Assembly (NCBI GenBank): GCA_964344525.1
Contig: CAYFOB010000038.1
Span: 1 to 15,113, forward strand
Direction: 5' to 3'
Length of the DNA: 15,113 nt
Source of the DNA: an uncultured Thiomargarita sp.
GTDB taxonomy: Bacteria > Pseudomonadota > Gammaproteobacteria > Beggiatoales > Beggiatoaceae
The first letter of the stretch is position 1. Every line of letters starts with the position of its first letter. Under the pieces are notes generated by a model. That model ran no database searches. It saw only the letters and a program-made list of their open reading frames with translations, and was not told where the DNA came from. This document shows positions 1,701 through 6,664 of the stretch, piece after piece. A program made the translations under genes and the position numbers.

Positions 1701-1730
1701 TTGACATTTTTTTTGGAGTCCCGTTAAAAT
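1701..1730 (+). promoter_or_regulatory. Sigma70-like promoter upstream of the cobalamin riboswitch (-35 TTGACA 1701-1706, 18-nt spacer, -10 TAAAAT 1725-1730)
   Basis: Consensus -35 hexamer and near-consensus -10, with an AT-rich spacer, immediately 5' of the riboswitch conserved core. Confidence 0.55.
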
Positions 1731-1736
1731 TGCTCA

Positions 1737-1905
1737 CCTTGTTTAGGTGCTCAACGAGATAAACGGGAAATCGGTGCAAGCCCGATACTGCCCCCGCAAC
1801 GGTAAATAAGTTAAGGCCAATCATTTTAATTAAGTCACTGCGCTTGGCGTGGGAAGGCGATTGGTTTATGTGCAGATATGCCAGCTTATGAGTCCGGATA
1901 CCGGC
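1737..1905 (+). promoter_or_regulatory. Cobalamin (AdoCbl/B12) riboswitch in the btuB leader
   Basis: Conserved aptamer core AAACGGGAAATCGGTGCAAGCCCGATACTGCCCCCGCAACGGTAA (1760-1804) matches the cobalamin riboswitch consensus GGGAA..GGTG.AA.CC...C.G.CCCGC.AC.GTAA. Downstream are a B12-box-like GTCACTG (about 1836-1842) and GGGAAGGC (about 1851-1858). A roughly 110-nt expression platform follows, containing a pyrimidine tract (TTCTTTCCTCTGC, about 1971-1983) that could pair with the SD GAGGAG at 2002-2007. Boundaries are approximate. Confidence 0.75.
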
Positions 1906-2015
1906 CTAAACATTTTTTGATGTGTGTCGCGGAGGGCGACGGGCATGCAGGCGCTTGTGCCTGTTTGTCATTCTTTCCTCTGCAATTTATTTTACATGTG
2001 AGGAGAAAATCCATC

Positions 2016-3833
2016 TTGAATTATTTTCCCCGATTGACCAGCCTATTGTTATTTGTTGTTATTTGTCCATTCTCAAAAGCTGCTGAAGAGCCCCTGTCAG
2101 AGGTTGTCGTCACTGCAACCCGCACTACCCAAACGACGGATAGTTTGCTTTCATCAGTCACCGTGCTTACCCGCGAGGATATTGACAATAGTCGCGCACT
2201 CACTTTGCCCGATATTTTGCGCAGTGTGCCTGGTTTAGATATTACCACGAATGGTGGTTTAGGTAAAACAACATCTGTATTTATGCGCGGCACCAATTCT
2301 GATCATGTTTTGGTGTTGGTGGATGGGGTTAAAATCGGTTCAGCGACTGCGGGTGCGGCAACATTTGAGCATTTGCCCTTGTCACACATTGAGCGCATTG
2401 AAATTGTGCGCGGTCCCCGTTCTAGTTTATATGGCTCTGAGGCTATTGGTGGCGTAATACAGATTTTTACCCGTCGAGGCAAGGGTAAAAAAACAAATGT
2501 GAGCCTTAGCGGTGGCATTGGTGAGGATAATACTTCTCAATTAACTGCCGGGTTGTCGGGCTCTATTAATAATAGTTGGTATAGTTTCTATGCTGATTAT
2601 TTAGAGACGGATGGCTTTGATGTTTATCAGGGCATAGAGCCTGATGATGATGGTTATGATAATACCTCGTATAGTGCACGCTTGGGTCATCGCTTTGGGA
2701 ATGTGATCAATCTTGAGGTCCATGCGCTGCGAGCGCAAGGGCATAACAAATATGATTCTACTGATCCCACTTATCCGAGTAATAACGAGGAGGATTTTTT
2801 ACAGCAAGTCTTTGGTTTAAAAACAGAGATTTTTGTCAACGATTGGTGGCAAATGATTTTGAATGGGGGTAAAAGCTTTGATGAAACCGATAATTTTGGT
2901 AATACTGCGCCAAAATCCTTTTTTCATACCCATCGCAAAACGGCGTCTTTTCAAAATGATTTTTTGTTTTCGGGTAACAATATATTGACAATCGGTTATG
3001 ACTACCAAAAGGATGAGGTGGGTAGTAGTGAAGCTTTTGCGGTGGATTCCCGTGAGAATCATGGTTTATTTGTGGAATATCAAACTCAGTTGGGTTCTGT
3101 TAATTTGATAGGGGGCTTACGCCAAGAAGATAATGATCAGTTTGGTGATCACACAACAGGTAATATCGCCTTAGGTTATGCGCTTGCTCCAACAAAACGT
3201 TTTGTTATTTCTTATGGGACAGCCTTTAAGGCGCCTGCATTTAATGAGTTGTATTATCCAAACTATGGTAATCCTAATATTGTCCCTGAGGAGTCTGAAA
3301 GTGTTGAAATTGGTTTAATGGGTGAACAAGCCAATTATCGATGGTCGTTGAATGCCTACCGCACTAAGATTGATAAGTTGATTGCTACCAACTTTGATCC
3401 AGCAACAAGCAAGTATTTTGCTGATAATATCAACAAAGCAAAAATCAAGGGTATAGAATATTTCTTGGAATTGCGCGATGGTGGTTGGGAATTTAATGCG
3501 ACGGCTTCTTGGTTAAAGCCCGAAGATGATACAACAGGCAAAATATTACCACGCCGCGCAGAAAAAAGTGCACGGGTTGAATTGGCGGAAAGACGGGGGC
3601 GTGCGCGTTTAGGAATCAGTTGGTTAATCCAAGGTGACCGTTATGACGATGCGCCTAATACTCAACGTTTAGAGGGTTATGAGATATGGAATCTCGCGGG
3701 TGATTATTTTTTCGACAAGCATTGGTTTTTGCGTTTTCGTGTGGAAAATGTGGGTGATGAAAAATATGAAACCGCCCGTTTTTATAATACAGCAGGACGG
3801 TTTTGGTTTACGAGTCTTCATTATCAGTATTAA
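2016..3833 (+). CDS. btuB: TonB-dependent outer-membrane receptor, vitamin B12/cobalamin transporter BtuB family
   Basis: Signal peptide (NYFPRLTSLLLFVVICPFSKA/AEE), TonB-box-like EVVVTATR, plug-domain motifs (IEIVRGPRSSLYGSEAIGGVIQIFTR), a long beta-barrel region, and the C-terminal aromatic terminus (...FTSLHYQY) typical of TonB-dependent receptors. It lies directly downstream of a cobalamin riboswitch. Start is placed at TTG 2016 (SD AGGAG 2001-2005, 10-nt spacing). An in-frame GTG at 1998 (MRRKSILNYF...) is an alternative. The ORF-track start at 1878 would translate the riboswitch and is rejected. Confidence 0.85.
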   Translation: MNYFPRLTSLLLFVVICPFSKAAEEPLSEVVVTATRTTQTTDSLLSSVTVLTREDIDNSRALTLPDILRSVPGLDITTNGGLGKTTSVFMRGTNSDHVLVLVDGVKIGSATAGAATFEHLPLSHIERIEIVRGPRSSLYGSEAIGGVIQIFTRRGKGKKTNVSLSGGIGEDNTSQLTAGLSGSINNSWYSFYADYLETDGFDVYQGIEPDDDGYDNTSYSARLGHRFGNVINLEVHALRAQGHNKYDSTDPTYPSNNEEDFLQQVFGLKTEIFVNDWWQMILNGGKSFDETDNFGNTAPKSFFHTHRKTASFQNDFLFSGNNILTIGYDYQKDEVGSSEAFAVDSRENHGLFVEYQTQLGSVNLIGGLRQEDNDQFGDHTTGNIALGYALAPTKRFVISYGTAFKAPAFNELYYPNYGNPNIVPEESESVEIGLMGEQANYRWSLNAYRTKIDKLIATNFDPATSKYFADNINKAKIKGIEYFLELRDGGWEFNATASWLKPEDDTTGKILPRRAEKSARVELAERRGRARLGISWLIQGDRYDDAPNTQRLEGYEIWNLAGDYFFDKHWFLRFRVENVGDEKYETARFYNTAGRFWFTSLHYQY

Positions 3834-3928: not shown

Positions 3929-4003
3929 TAAAATAAATATTTGAGGTTTTATTCTGTTTCTTGTCAAATTTTTTTGATTCAAACAATTTTTCGGAGAAAA
4001 ACA

Positions 4004-4732
4004 ATGCTTGATACCTTTCGGATTTATACAGAGCTCAAAGAAGGCATGGAAGCCGCAGCTGCAGAAAAAATAGCCAGTATGATAGGCTTGCTATATGATG
4101 AGCTGCGCCAAAGCGTCACCAAAAATGAGTTTAATGACTTAAAAGCTGTTGTTAAGGATTTGGCTGAGGCTCAAAAAGTCACAGAAATGCGATTAGCAGA
4201 GTTGGGTGTGGCTCAAAAAGCCAGCGAAAAACGATTAACACGCCTTGAAGAAGTTATTACAGAGTTGGGGGATACCCAAAATCGATTAGCCAAAGCTCAA
4301 GAAAAAACGGAAAAAACCGTTCAGCAATTGGCTAGACAAGTCGGTGGTTTAAGTGATGTGGTGGGTGGCGATTTAGAAGAGATTGCCTATATTGTGTTGC
4401 ATGACGTGTTAAAACGAGAATTGGGTTGGCAAGTCGGTGTTCTTGAACGAGCCTGGCAAACTTGGGGACAAGAACCAGAGGAGGTAGATATTTTTGGTCA
4501 AGCAAACGATCCAAAAGAACCCAGTAAAACCATTTGGATTGTTGGTGAAGCCAAACACAATATTTCTATAAAAGAGGTGAAAAAGTTCATCAAGCAAGTT
4601 GAACGGGCGCGAGAACATTTAAGCTGTGAAATTTTTCCCGTTGTTTTTTGCTATCGCGCTCGTCCAGAAGTACAACAAATGATTATTGATAGTGGTATTC
4701 GGTTGGTTTTTTCTTATGGTAAATTGTTGTAA
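4004..4732 (+). CDS. Hypothetical protein: N-terminal coiled coil (about 130 aa) plus a C-terminal PD-(D/E)xK-like (restriction-endonuclease-fold) module
   Basis: ATG at 4004 has GGAG (3993-3996) 7 nt upstream; the track's longer start at 3941 has no RBS. The coiled coil contains degenerate 15-residue repeats (AEAQKVTEMRLAELG / VAQKASEKRLTRLEE / LGDTQNRLAKAQEKT). The C-terminal segment has D...E.K spacing (VDIFGQANDP ... IWIVGEAKHNI) followed by a helix (KKFIKQVERAREHL), typical of the PD-(D/E)xK core. The family assignment is from pattern only. Confidence 0.65.
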   Translation: MLDTFRIYTELKEGMEAAAAEKIASMIGLLYDELRQSVTKNEFNDLKAVVKDLAEAQKVTEMRLAELGVAQKASEKRLTRLEEVITELGDTQNRLAKAQEKTEKTVQQLARQVGGLSDVVGGDLEEIAYIVLHDVLKRELGWQVGVLERAWQTWGQEPEEVDIFGQANDPKEPSKTIWIVGEAKHNISIKEVKKFIKQVERAREHLSCEIFPVVFCYRARPEVQQMIIDSGIRLVFSYGKLL

Positions 4733-4834
4733 TTTTCCTTCATGCCCAAGATTCCAAAAAGCCTATTTCCATGCATGCATAAATAAATATGGCAACGAAC
4801 CAAATCCTCCTATAGTTTTTCATAGAAATTTACC

Positions 4835-4867
4835 AGAAACCAGGTTTTTGGCAAAAGCCTGGTTTCT
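4835..4867 (+). terminator. Hairpin AGAAACCAGG-(13 nt)-CCTGGTTTCT; possible terminator or attenuator between the PD-(D/E)xK gene and the sensor gene
   Basis: 10-bp perfect stem (4835-4844 / 4858-4867). The U-tract is displaced (ATGAAATCATTTTT), so it is weak as an intrinsic terminator. Confidence 0.3.
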
Positions 4868-4916
4868 ATGAAATCATTTTTCTGAACATCTATTAGTAAA
4901 AACCAAAATCAATATT

Positions 4917-6611
4917 ATGTCTATAAAAAAACTACTTATTATCAGCTATTTTTTTATCATTTTCGGTATTCTCATTTTGGGCATGCTCAGTATTTTGTTG
5001 GTCCAAAATGATAAGGCACTCGCCGCCAAACAAGAGCAACGTTATCAGTCCAACTTGCTTGCTGATCAACTTCGACAAAGTTCTGATGATTTGACGAGAT
5101 TAGCCAGGACTTATGTTGTCACAGGGGATGCGCAATACGAAAACATGTATTGGGATATCCTTGCGATACGAAATGGCGAAAAAGCACGCCCTCAGCACTA
5201 TGATCGGATTTATTGGGATTTAGTGCTCACTTATGGCGATAAACCACGTCCTGATGGTGAAACGATTTCCCTACAAGAATTGATGAAAAGGACAGGTTTT
5301 ACTGAAGCTGAATTTGCCAAATTACGCGAAGCCCAAAACAACTCAGATGGATTGGTAACCACCGAAACGATTGCCATGAATGCCGTTAAAGGTTTGTATG
5401 ATGATGGCACCGGCAATTATGTTAAAAAAGGTGAGCCCGATTTTGAAATGGCAAGGCGCATTATGCATGATGTGCAGTACCATCAGGATAAAGCTGCTAT
5501 TATGAAGCCCATTGATGAATTTTTTGAGTTACTTGATGAGCGCACCAAAGGGCTAGTCCAATATCATGCCAAAAAAGCTGATTTTTTGTTTTTTCTTATA
5601 CAAATCGTAGTGCTGTTGCTAATCGTTTTTTCCGTTTTGATTGGCATTTTTGTAACCAAGCAAATTTTGAAACAAGTTGGTGGTGAACCGACTAAAATTG
5701 CTCGAATGACTAAACAAGTGGCGAGTGGGCAATTGGATGTACAGTTTGAATCACAATCAGCCACTGGTATTTATGCTGATGTGCAAACAATGGTTAATAA
5801 TCTCAAGCTGGTTATTAAAGATATTATCCAAGTGTCTGAAGGATTAGCTAAGGGTAATCTTCGTGTCACACCACAAGCAGAATATCAAGGCAATTTTGTC
5901 CAGATAAAAAATGCCCTAGAAACCGCTTTATCCAACCAACAACGGGTGGTTGAAGACATTGTTCAAGTTTCTCAAGGATTGGCAGCGGGTAAACATGTAA
6001 TTGCCCATGCAGAATACCAAGGAGATTTTGTGCAAATTAAGGAAACCTTAGAAACCGCTTCTCTCAAATTGGCAGAAGCAACAGCACAAAATGTTAAGCA
6101 AGATTGGTTGAAAACAGGGCAAGCGCAGTTAAGTGAATTGATGAGTGGCGAACAGGAAATGACAGAGCTTGCTAAGAGAATTATTACTTTTTTGACGACT
6201 TATGTCGATGCGCAGGTGGGATTATTTTATTTGCTAACGGATGGGGATTCTCTGCAAGTCATTGCGAGTTACGCTTACAGTGACAATTTATCCAACCAAT
6301 TTAAAGTTGGAGAAGGTTTGGTTGGAGAAGCGGCTTTGGAACAAAAAATGCTTATTCGTACCCACACCCCCGAAGAATTTAAACACATTACGCAGTCAGG
6401 CGTTGTTATGGCGATTCCCCGTCATGTCATTATTATTCCATTTTTGTACGAAAAAAGTGTGAAAGGTGTGATTGAAATCGGTTTTTCTAATCAGGAATCA
6501 ACGAAGCTTCAACAGGATTTCATACAGCAGGTGATGCCAAGTCTTGGCATTGCGATCAATACTGCTCAGTCGCGTAATCAGATGCAACGGCTTTTAAAGG
6601 GGGATGATTAA
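4917..6611 (+). CDS. Membrane sensor protein: TM - periplasmic CHASE3-like domain - TM - two HAMP-like units - GAF domain; no recognisable output domain
   Basis: TM1 is aa 5-29 (LLIISYFFIIFGILILGMLSILLV). The periplasmic region of about 190 aa has a CHASE3-like motif (LARTYVVTGDAQYENMYWD, compare the CHASE3 RGYLLTGD..YLEPY). TM2 is FLFFLIQIVVLLLIVFSVLIGIFV. There are two HAMP AS-2-like repeats (AKGNLRVTPQAEYQGNFVQIKNALETA and AAGKHVIAHAEYQGDFVQIKETLETA). A C-terminal GAF-like fold follows (ITFLTTYVDAQVGLFYLL...GEGLVGEAALEQKMLIRTH...). The protein ends at the stop at 6609-6611, directly followed by a terminator. Confidence 0.8.
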   Translation: MSIKKLLIISYFFIIFGILILGMLSILLVQNDKALAAKQEQRYQSNLLADQLRQSSDDLTRLARTYVVTGDAQYENMYWDILAIRNGEKARPQHYDRIYWDLVLTYGDKPRPDGETISLQELMKRTGFTEAEFAKLREAQNNSDGLVTTETIAMNAVKGLYDDGTGNYVKKGEPDFEMARRIMHDVQYHQDKAAIMKPIDEFFELLDERTKGLVQYHAKKADFLFFLIQIVVLLLIVFSVLIGIFVTKQILKQVGGEPTKIARMTKQVASGQLDVQFESQSATGIYADVQTMVNNLKLVIKDIIQVSEGLAKGNLRVTPQAEYQGNFVQIKNALETALSNQQRVVEDIVQVSQGLAAGKHVIAHAEYQGDFVQIKETLETASLKLAEATAQNVKQDWLKTGQAQLSELMSGEQEMTELAKRIITFLTTYVDAQVGLFYLLTDGDSLQVIASYAYSDNLSNQFKVGEGLVGEAALEQKMLIRTHTPEEFKHITQSGVVMAIPRHVIIIPFLYEKSVKGVIEIGFSNQESTKLQQDFIQQVMPSLGIAINTAQSRNQMQRLLKGDD

Positions 6612-6613
6612 AC

Positions 6614-6664
6614 TCTACAGCAAGGCGGAGTGGTGCGGAAATTTTTCTTGCTGTAGAGTTTTTC
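6614..6664 (+). terminator. Rho-independent terminator after the sensor gene
   Basis: CTCTACAGCAAG (6614-6625) pairs with CTTGCTGTAGAG (6647-6658) as a 12-bp perfect stem with a 21-nt loop, followed by TTTTT (6659-6663). Confidence 0.6.

Follow-up and report, generated by a model that had tools for sequence, protein, structure and literature searches.

Architecture of the sensor gene

The DNA analysed here (hereafter the window) spans positions 1 to 15,113 of contig CAYFOB010000038.1, from an uncultured Thiomargarita sp. (Beggiatoales, Gammaproteobacteria; assembly GCA_964344525.1). Its forward strand carries, at 4917..6611, a complete gene for a kinase-less transmembrane sensor (ATG start, 564 amino acids in the list of open reading frames), which a preliminary description drawn from the sequence had presented as a CHASE3-HAMP-HAMP-GAF protein without an output domain. 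The open reading frame is real and intact, with neither a frameshift nor an internal stop. Homologues match both its N-terminal MSIKKLL start and the position of its stop, of the conserved columns the N-terminal part keeps 96 of 97 and the HAMP-GAF part 107 of 122, and the four departures from conserved columns within the GAF domain are all conservative. Two hydrophobic segments were found (residues 1-32 and 218-254, Kyte-Doolittle), in agreement with the two transmembrane (TM) helices first proposed. TM helix 1 (around residues 6-30; 4932..5006, forward strand as for all parts of this gene) belongs to a continuous helix running from residue 3 to residue 69 in an AlphaFold2 model, and TM helix 2 (around residues 222-247; 5580..5657) to the model helix 186-254. 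Between them lies a periplasmic sensor domain of about 190 amino acids (around residues 31-221; 5007..5579), a four-helix bundle for which Pfam has no matching model.

TM helix 2 is followed by an array of HAMP units (PF00672 / PF18947), recognized both by a profile match and by helix-connector-helix units. Pfam HAMP_2 matches residues 303-336 (E 2.5e-7, 31 bits against a cutoff of 24.3), and the AlphaFold2 model of residues 248-564 (pLDDT 83.8) contains long helices at 285-311, 327-356 and 371-409 with connectors between them. As the model contains three helix-connector-helix units, the protein is predicted to carry three concatenated HAMP units and not two as had been counted. The internal duplication that had been noticed earlier is nevertheless genuine: AEYQGNFVQIKNALETA at residue 321 recurs as AEYQGDFVQIKETLETA at residue 365, with a period of 44 amino acids and 24 identical residues among 39 aligned between the duplicated units. 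These are HAMP unit 2 (around residues 299-342; 5811..5942, with AEYQGNFVQIKNALETA at nucleotides 5877-5927), delimited by the HAMP_2 match, the repeat alignment and the model helices 285-311 and 327-356, and HAMP unit 3 (around residues 343-386; 5943..6074, with AEYQGDFVQIKETLETA at nucleotides 6009-6059), delimited by the repeat alignment and the model. HAMP unit 1 (around residues 248-298; 5658..5810), placed from the helices and connector of the model, is divergent and holds most of the non-consensus residues.

The array leads into a GAF domain (residues 413-560; 6153..6596), as originally described. Pfam GAF_2 (PF13185) matches residues 413-547 (E 4.7e-13, 50 bits against a cutoff of 28.6) and Foldseek aligns the fold with solved GAF domains (E 1.9e-9, TM 0.75-0.80). 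No cysteine occurs in the sequence of the GAF region, and this rules out an enzymatic GAF of the free methionine sulfoxide reductase type as well as a covalent bilin binder. Pfam detected no HisKA, HATPase_c, GGDEF, PAS or MCPsignal (PF00015) domain in the protein, even at E<=10. With neither a HisKA/DHp domain bearing the phospho-accepting histidine nor HATPase_c, it is not a sensor histidine kinase; with no PF00015, it is not a methyl-accepting chemotaxis protein (MCP) either, and the N-terminal sensor is the only part that it has in common with MCPs.

The protein ends in LLKGDD, and its stop codon (6609-6611) overlaps a hairpin at 6610-6661 (dG -25.7 kcal/mol, z -3.95; none of 200 shuffles folds as well). 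RNA folding thus supports the terminator-like structure that had been seen after the stop (6610..6663, forward strand): its core is a perfect 12-bp stem (6613-6624 / 6647-6658) with a 22-nt loop, followed by UUUUU at 6659-6663. A consensus terminator scan made no call there because this loop is unusually large. It had also been suggested that an unseen frameshift could have truncated the protein. However, when five full-length paralogous kinases were used as tblastn queries, homology stopped at nucleotide 6599, four amino acids before the end of the protein, and across all frames of the window the sensor gene was the sole match at E<=10, without any kinase remnant. This sharp end, with nothing kinase-like elsewhere, indicates a clean truncation and not a frameshift. 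The protein genuinely terminates after its GAF domain, with no kinase motifs on the 3' side, exactly as the preliminary description had it, and both a hidden frameshift and kinase remnants are rejected.

The periplasmic sensor domain

AlphaFold2 modelled residues 1-261 with confidence (pLDDT 90.4) as a bundle of helices 3-69, 72-85, 130-157 and 186-254 that carries a 45-amino acid insertion (86-129) and a small beta hairpin (160-170). The domain had been called CHASE3-like, a label that stands for the fold class and for one motif (TGD) and falls for family membership. Like CHASE3, it is a periplasmic four-helix bundle between two TM helices. However, no Pfam family model matches it, CHASE3 (PF05227) included, even at E<=10, and hhalign, run against CHASE3 domains from paralogues, assigned a probability of 2.9% (P 0.015) to an alignment limited to TM helix 1 and helix 1, where the TGD motif falls on the CHASE3 motif. 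Foldseek returned only weak matches to the model, the best structural one being the CHASE3 domain 3VA9 (value 13.0), followed by 4K0D (12.1), MCP2201 (11.8), Vc1313 and LytS (11.5 each), PcaY (10.6), and NarQ and McpN (10.1 each). Since 3VA9 is also the best match of the PilJ domain of McpN (PMC6381276), such a match marks a fold class and not a family. The domain is moreover about 60 amino acids longer than CHASE3 (PF05227; 3VA9) and has no profile-level match to it. CHASE3 membership is thus ruled out by Pfam and hhalign, the agreement being limited to the fold class and one turn motif.

We also considered a relationship with the nitrate sensor kinases NarX and NarQ. Twelve amino acids past TM helix 1, the window sensor reads RYQSNLL (residues 42-48; nucleotides 5040-5060), for which the family consensus is RYQSYLL, and this resembles the core R-M-Q-S-Y-R-L of the NarX/NarQ P-box. 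The nitrate-binding motif of that P-box is G-x-x-R (PMC8199190), whereas the corresponding position of the sensor domain reads Q-x-x-R (Q-x-x-R-Y-Q-S-Y). In addition, a profile search of the PDB with the sensor domain retrieved neither NarX nor NarQ at E<=10. Homology was therefore rejected, and the RYQSYLL motif is retained as a lead only. The window sensor differs further from these kinases by the insertion in its bundle and by having neither DHp nor CA.

The sensor domain is itself highly conserved, with 42 invariant columns across 20 diverse sequences. It also occurs at the N-terminus of many chemoreceptors, from Desulfonema, Vibrio, Massilia, Duganella, Pseudomonas, Azospirillum, Leptospira and others. 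In these MCPs, the N-terminal 300 residues (TM helix 1, sensor, TM helix 2 and first HAMP) are 42-66% identical to those of the window sensor. They then run on into the MCP signalling domain (PF00015), whereas the window protein continues into HAMP-GAF and stops. It is thus a conserved, unannotated domain common to many chemoreceptors, a sensor that has no Pfam model and yet recurs in chemoreceptors of many Proteobacteria.

Conservation of the GAF-terminal ending

About ten homologues with the same sensor and the same build (P0002-P0009, P0011 and P0013; 51-66% identity, 533-623 amino acids) all terminate no more than a few residues from the end of the window sensor, after ...NTAESRxxMQxLL. 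Most of the same-sensor homologues of this kind have one extra 45-amino acid HAMP unit in the region of HAMP unit 3. Other same-sensor proteins (P0010, P0012, L014, L016 and L017; in L016 a protein of about 1270 amino acids within a reading frame of 1288) do not stop there but extend via a QSEELQ-type coiled coil to HisKA and HATPase_c and then to two or three receiver (REC) domains, so that the earlier remark that relatives of such build often run into HisKA/HATPase was justified. The window GAF's C-terminal helix ends at the very point where these long paralogues enter the coiled coil. We call short forms those proteins that stop within about 20 amino acids of the GAF domain, as the window sensor does, its stop coinciding with that of the other short forms.

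The short ending is not restricted to this sensor. More than 40 of the 120 best matches combine other periplasmic sensors (CHASE3, 4HB_MCP, dCache, MASE3 or PilJ) with HAMP-GAF and end at most 10 amino acids past the GAF domain. When the HAMP-GAF half was searched against 1.84 billion representatives, 10,183 matches were obtained, and we surveyed the end points of those 136 top representatives whose alignment reaches the end of the GAF domain: 78 continue for at least 200 amino acids, 36 stop within 20 amino acids and 22 are intermediate. In the long ones that were inspected, the continuation consists of coiled coil, HisKA, HATPase and REC. Among the 36 that stop, 31 have at least 200 amino acids upstream of the match. 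For the alignments themselves, a mixed set of 105 sequences (A2) was too heterogeneous and was replaced by separate domain alignments.

An output-less membrane GAF protein had originally been judged unusual; in the HAMP-GAF sensor family, in contrast, the GAF-terminal ending is common and conserved. The family is large and modular, is found in Beggiatoaceae and neighbouring lineages, and is built from a variable periplasmic sensor, a TM segment, a poly-HAMP array and a GAF domain, optionally followed by coiled coil, HisKA, HATPase and REC. A limited search of the literature on Beggiatoa HAMP/GAF sensors and on output-less HAMP-GAF proteins returned nothing relevant and yielded no account of short forms as a class.

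Pairing of short and long forms

At nine of 12 informative loci, a long paralogous hybrid kinase is encoded at most about 1.3 kb from the short form; the unpaired loci in this count are L010/L015, L095 and the window copy. Short and long forms are separated by an 11-bp spacer in a Thiomargarita locus (L004-6) and in another locus with a receiver gene upstream (L007-9), and by one small gene in L001/L002/L012 and in L013. The short form also adjoins a long hybrid kinase in L023, L031, L034 and L062. In Candidatus Halobeggiatoa HSG11 (L097, 1279-22211), two long and three short forms are grouped with an Hpt gene within 22 kb. The short forms of this last cluster carry 4HB, CHASE3 and MASE3 sensors, and a type ISP restriction enzyme gene as well as a transposase gene interrupt the cluster. 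HisKA, HATPase_c and REC domains are present in the long forms and, where it could be identified, the N-terminal sensor of the neighbouring long kinases is 4HB_MCP or dCache.

The pairing is old, since the identity between neighbouring short and long modules is usually only 57-62%, against 64-78% between short forms of different genomes. L031 (4809-10595) is an exception: the HAMP-GAF part of its short copy (8514-10595) is 75% identical to that of the adjacent long copy, and the short copy stops 18 amino acids into the coiled coil. This looks like a recent tandem duplication followed by truncation, and would illustrate how short forms arise. An ordinary split system, with homologues that end alike beside a defined separate partner, had been envisaged early on. 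At nine of the 12 loci this largely agrees with what we found, except that the partner is a complete sensor kinase and not a missing half, which makes it a pair of short and long paralogues and not a simple split gene.

Origin of the window copy

Sliding-window matches reveal a composite ancestry. Residues 1-350 of the window sensor are closest to same-sensor proteins, and from about residue 316 onwards paralogues that carry other sensors match best (P0057, L023, P0039, P0079 and P0017), so that the switch begins around residues 316-350. The window sensor is thus a mosaic of paralogue modules, which fits recombination, or loss of a unit, within the HAMP repeats. In a neighbour-joining tree its GAF domain groups with long forms, outside the tight clade of short forms, and together these two results reject simple orthology to that clade.

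The position of the GAF domain in the tree raises the possibility that the window copy is an independent and perhaps younger truncation. One may go further and suppose that a full-length hybrid kinase was truncated fairly recently and brought next to the MVP gene by a deletion or rearrangement, leaving a functionless or decaying product. The closest N-terminal relatives of the window sensor do include long kinases (L014, 81%, and L016, 78%, over the sensor domain), the copy is unpaired, and L031 shows that truncations of this kind occur. Nevertheless, we consider such a relic improbable: the window contains no kinase remnant, the stop falls exactly at the usual boundary of the short forms and is immediately followed by the terminator-like hairpin, and the conserved positions are kept as reported above in an uninterrupted frame. 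Its sequence is, moreover, a mosaic of paralogue modules and not a degraded copy.

Putative mode of action

The short forms keep the HAMP-GAF spine as far as the GAF domain's C-terminal helix and have none of the phosphorylating parts, and signalling by protein contact is thus the best-supported reading. The contact partner would most probably be the long paralogue that is usually encoded alongside. We give about an even chance to the idea that the window protein is a kinase-less co-sensor acting through a paralogous hybrid kinase, a mechanism suggested by gene adjacency and domain homology. A periplasmic ligand would bind to the four-helix-bundle domain, and the signal would pass through TM helix 2 and the three HAMP units to a dimeric GAF module. 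The short form, having neither DHp nor catalytic domain, could then contact or hetero-oligomerize with a long paralogue built on the same HAMP-GAF spine, and thereby either add a second periplasmic input to the long kinase or damp it. The partner of the window copy, if any, would be encoded elsewhere in the genome, as this copy stands unpaired and has a spacer and a terminator-like hairpin of its own.

Several points weigh against this proposal. The window copy has no kinase gene beside it over 4.9 kb upstream and 8.5 kb downstream on its 15.1-kb contig, and two more short-form loci (L010/L015 and L095) are likewise unpaired. The loci are few, lie on metagenome-assembled contigs and are not phylogenetically independent; the short modules of L001 and L013, for instance, are 94% identical over the last HAMP and the GAF domain. 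Finally, what links short and long forms functionally is solely the adjacency of their genes.

Alternatively, the GAF domain could itself be the output. The sensor would then act alone: upon a periplasmic signal it would, at the membrane, bind or release either a small ligand or a soluble partner other than a kinase, with no dedicated kinase paralogue. Protein contact can be the mode of action of stand-alone GAF proteins, an example being Staphylococcus NreA with NreB. The scaffold residues of the GAF domain are well conserved, and the three short-form loci with no nearby kinase, the window among them, agree with such autonomy. We nevertheless hold it to be unlikely, since most short forms adjoin a long paralogue and no conserved non-kinase neighbour was seen at the short-form loci. 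The lack of cysteine also removes two roles that a solitary GAF domain might have had.

Known systems provide parallels for a co-sensor that works through a hybrid kinase. In poly-HAMP hybrid kinases, such as those of the Myxococcus xanthus AskA type and the fungal group III kinases, a concatenated HAMP array leads into a GAF domain, as in the window protein. Kinase-type poly-HAMP arrays feed GAF-DHp-CA-REC modules and transmit signals along a continuous dimeric helical spine, and AskA, with 21 HAMPs, is among the soluble poly-HAMP receptors (PMC13446029). The long paralogues of the window gene have the same order of GAF, coiled coil, DHp, CA and REC, and in a sequence search of the PDB the HAMP region of a paralogue matched the AskA construct 9trk. 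From HAMP to GAF, the window protein is homologous to the long hybrid kinases; unlike AskA, it is membrane-bound, has a periplasmic sensor and three HAMPs, and is devoid of DHp, CA and REC.

RetS and GacS of Pseudomonas aeruginosa illustrate how heteromeric contact with a second sensor protein can control a kinase, as RetS is reported to disrupt the canonical kinase dimerization interface of GacS (PMC8498467). The logic that we propose is the same: a membrane sensor would modulate a kinase by direct contact, without itself phosphorylating the regulator of the pathway. The parallel is partial, as the window protein has no kinase domain at all and its interaction is suggested by gene adjacency. 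RetS itself is a full-length hybrid kinase.

It is tempting to generalize from the window protein to all short forms, although we are more tentative here and think it somewhat less probable than the co-sensor role alone. The short forms could be dedicated and widespread kinase-less transmembrane co-receptors that enter mixed dimers or arrays with poly-HAMP-GAF hybrid kinases, and that are renewed by tandem duplication, truncation at the boundary between GAF and coiled coil, and shuffling of modules. If so, giant sulfur bacteria would possess a combinatorial control in which several periplasmic inputs converge on one phosphorelay. Partnership between short forms and long kinases would represent a natural and recurrent way of adding or vetoing phosphorelay inputs without a new kinase, and would offer a tractable system for studying how HAMP-GAF spines recognize each other.

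The major vault protein gene and other genes of the window

The MVP gene (6708-9257, forward strand) starts directly downstream of the sensor gene, where it had first been placed, 96 bp beyond it and on the same strand, and its product strongly matches the Vault repeat and shoulder families. The emphasis placed at first on this adjacency has found no support. Unrelated genes lie upstream of three MVP homologues (79-84% identity), none of which is preceded by a sensor (0/3): an OmpR-type regulator in Candidatus Parabeggiatoa HSG14, small phage-like genes in a JGI metagenome, and RNase R in a third assembly. Reciprocally, MVP is encoded in none of the loci of sensor homologues that were examined. 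With the strong hairpin and its U tract lying between the two genes as well, their adjacency looks incidental. A functional tie, in which the sensor would for example control the production or assembly of vaults, draws on the common strand and the short distance; it is very improbable and is largely refuted by the lack of a conserved neighbourhood. For the window, this removes any hint of a unit made up of the sensor and the bacterial vault protein.

The MVP is full-length and 69-87% identical to proteins of Beggiatoaceae and many filamentous cyanobacteria, often annotated as 'colicin uptake protein'. Convergent to its gene, on the reverse strand, a NACHT NTPase is fused to an FGE-sulfatase-like domain (9553-12516). 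In Candidatus Parabeggiatoa HSG14, a large FGE-sulfatase protein is likewise encoded a few kilobases beyond MVP on the opposite strand (L091, 10170-11085), which may represent partial synteny. A pair of genes for MazG-like and DUF2939 proteins lies beside the short sensor of a Thiomargarita locus (L010, 7105-7909) and recurs a few kilobases from MVP in another assembly (L094, 11789-12757), probably as local synteny without significance.

Upstream of the sensor gene, a 263-amino acid coiled-coil protein (3941-4732, forward strand) has no family match, with weak sub-threshold coiled-coil matches only and no Pfam match for its C-terminal part. The 184-bp spacer that separates the two genes contains promoter-like hexamer pairs on the forward strand at 4789-4816 and 4848-4877, for which the hits of the consensus scan are not above those of shuffles, and a perfect 15-bp hairpin (AGAAACCAGGUUUUU / AAAAGCCUGGUUUCU; 4835-4867, forward strand, z -3.6) that may serve as terminator to the upstream gene or else represent a small repeat element.

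Further upstream, a cobalamin riboswitch (1728-1923, forward strand; Rfam RF00174, 96.9 bits) precedes and overlaps the start of an open reading frame for a TonB-dependent B12 receptor (1878-3833). The family model matches this frame only from residue 54, and the true start is therefore probably later. At the other end of the window, the siroheme synthase gene cysG (12629-13995, reverse strand) is split into two overlapping pieces in different frames, one for the NAD-binding part (13636-13995) and one for the dimerisation and methylase parts (12629-13672), which reflects either a frameshift or a sequencing error.

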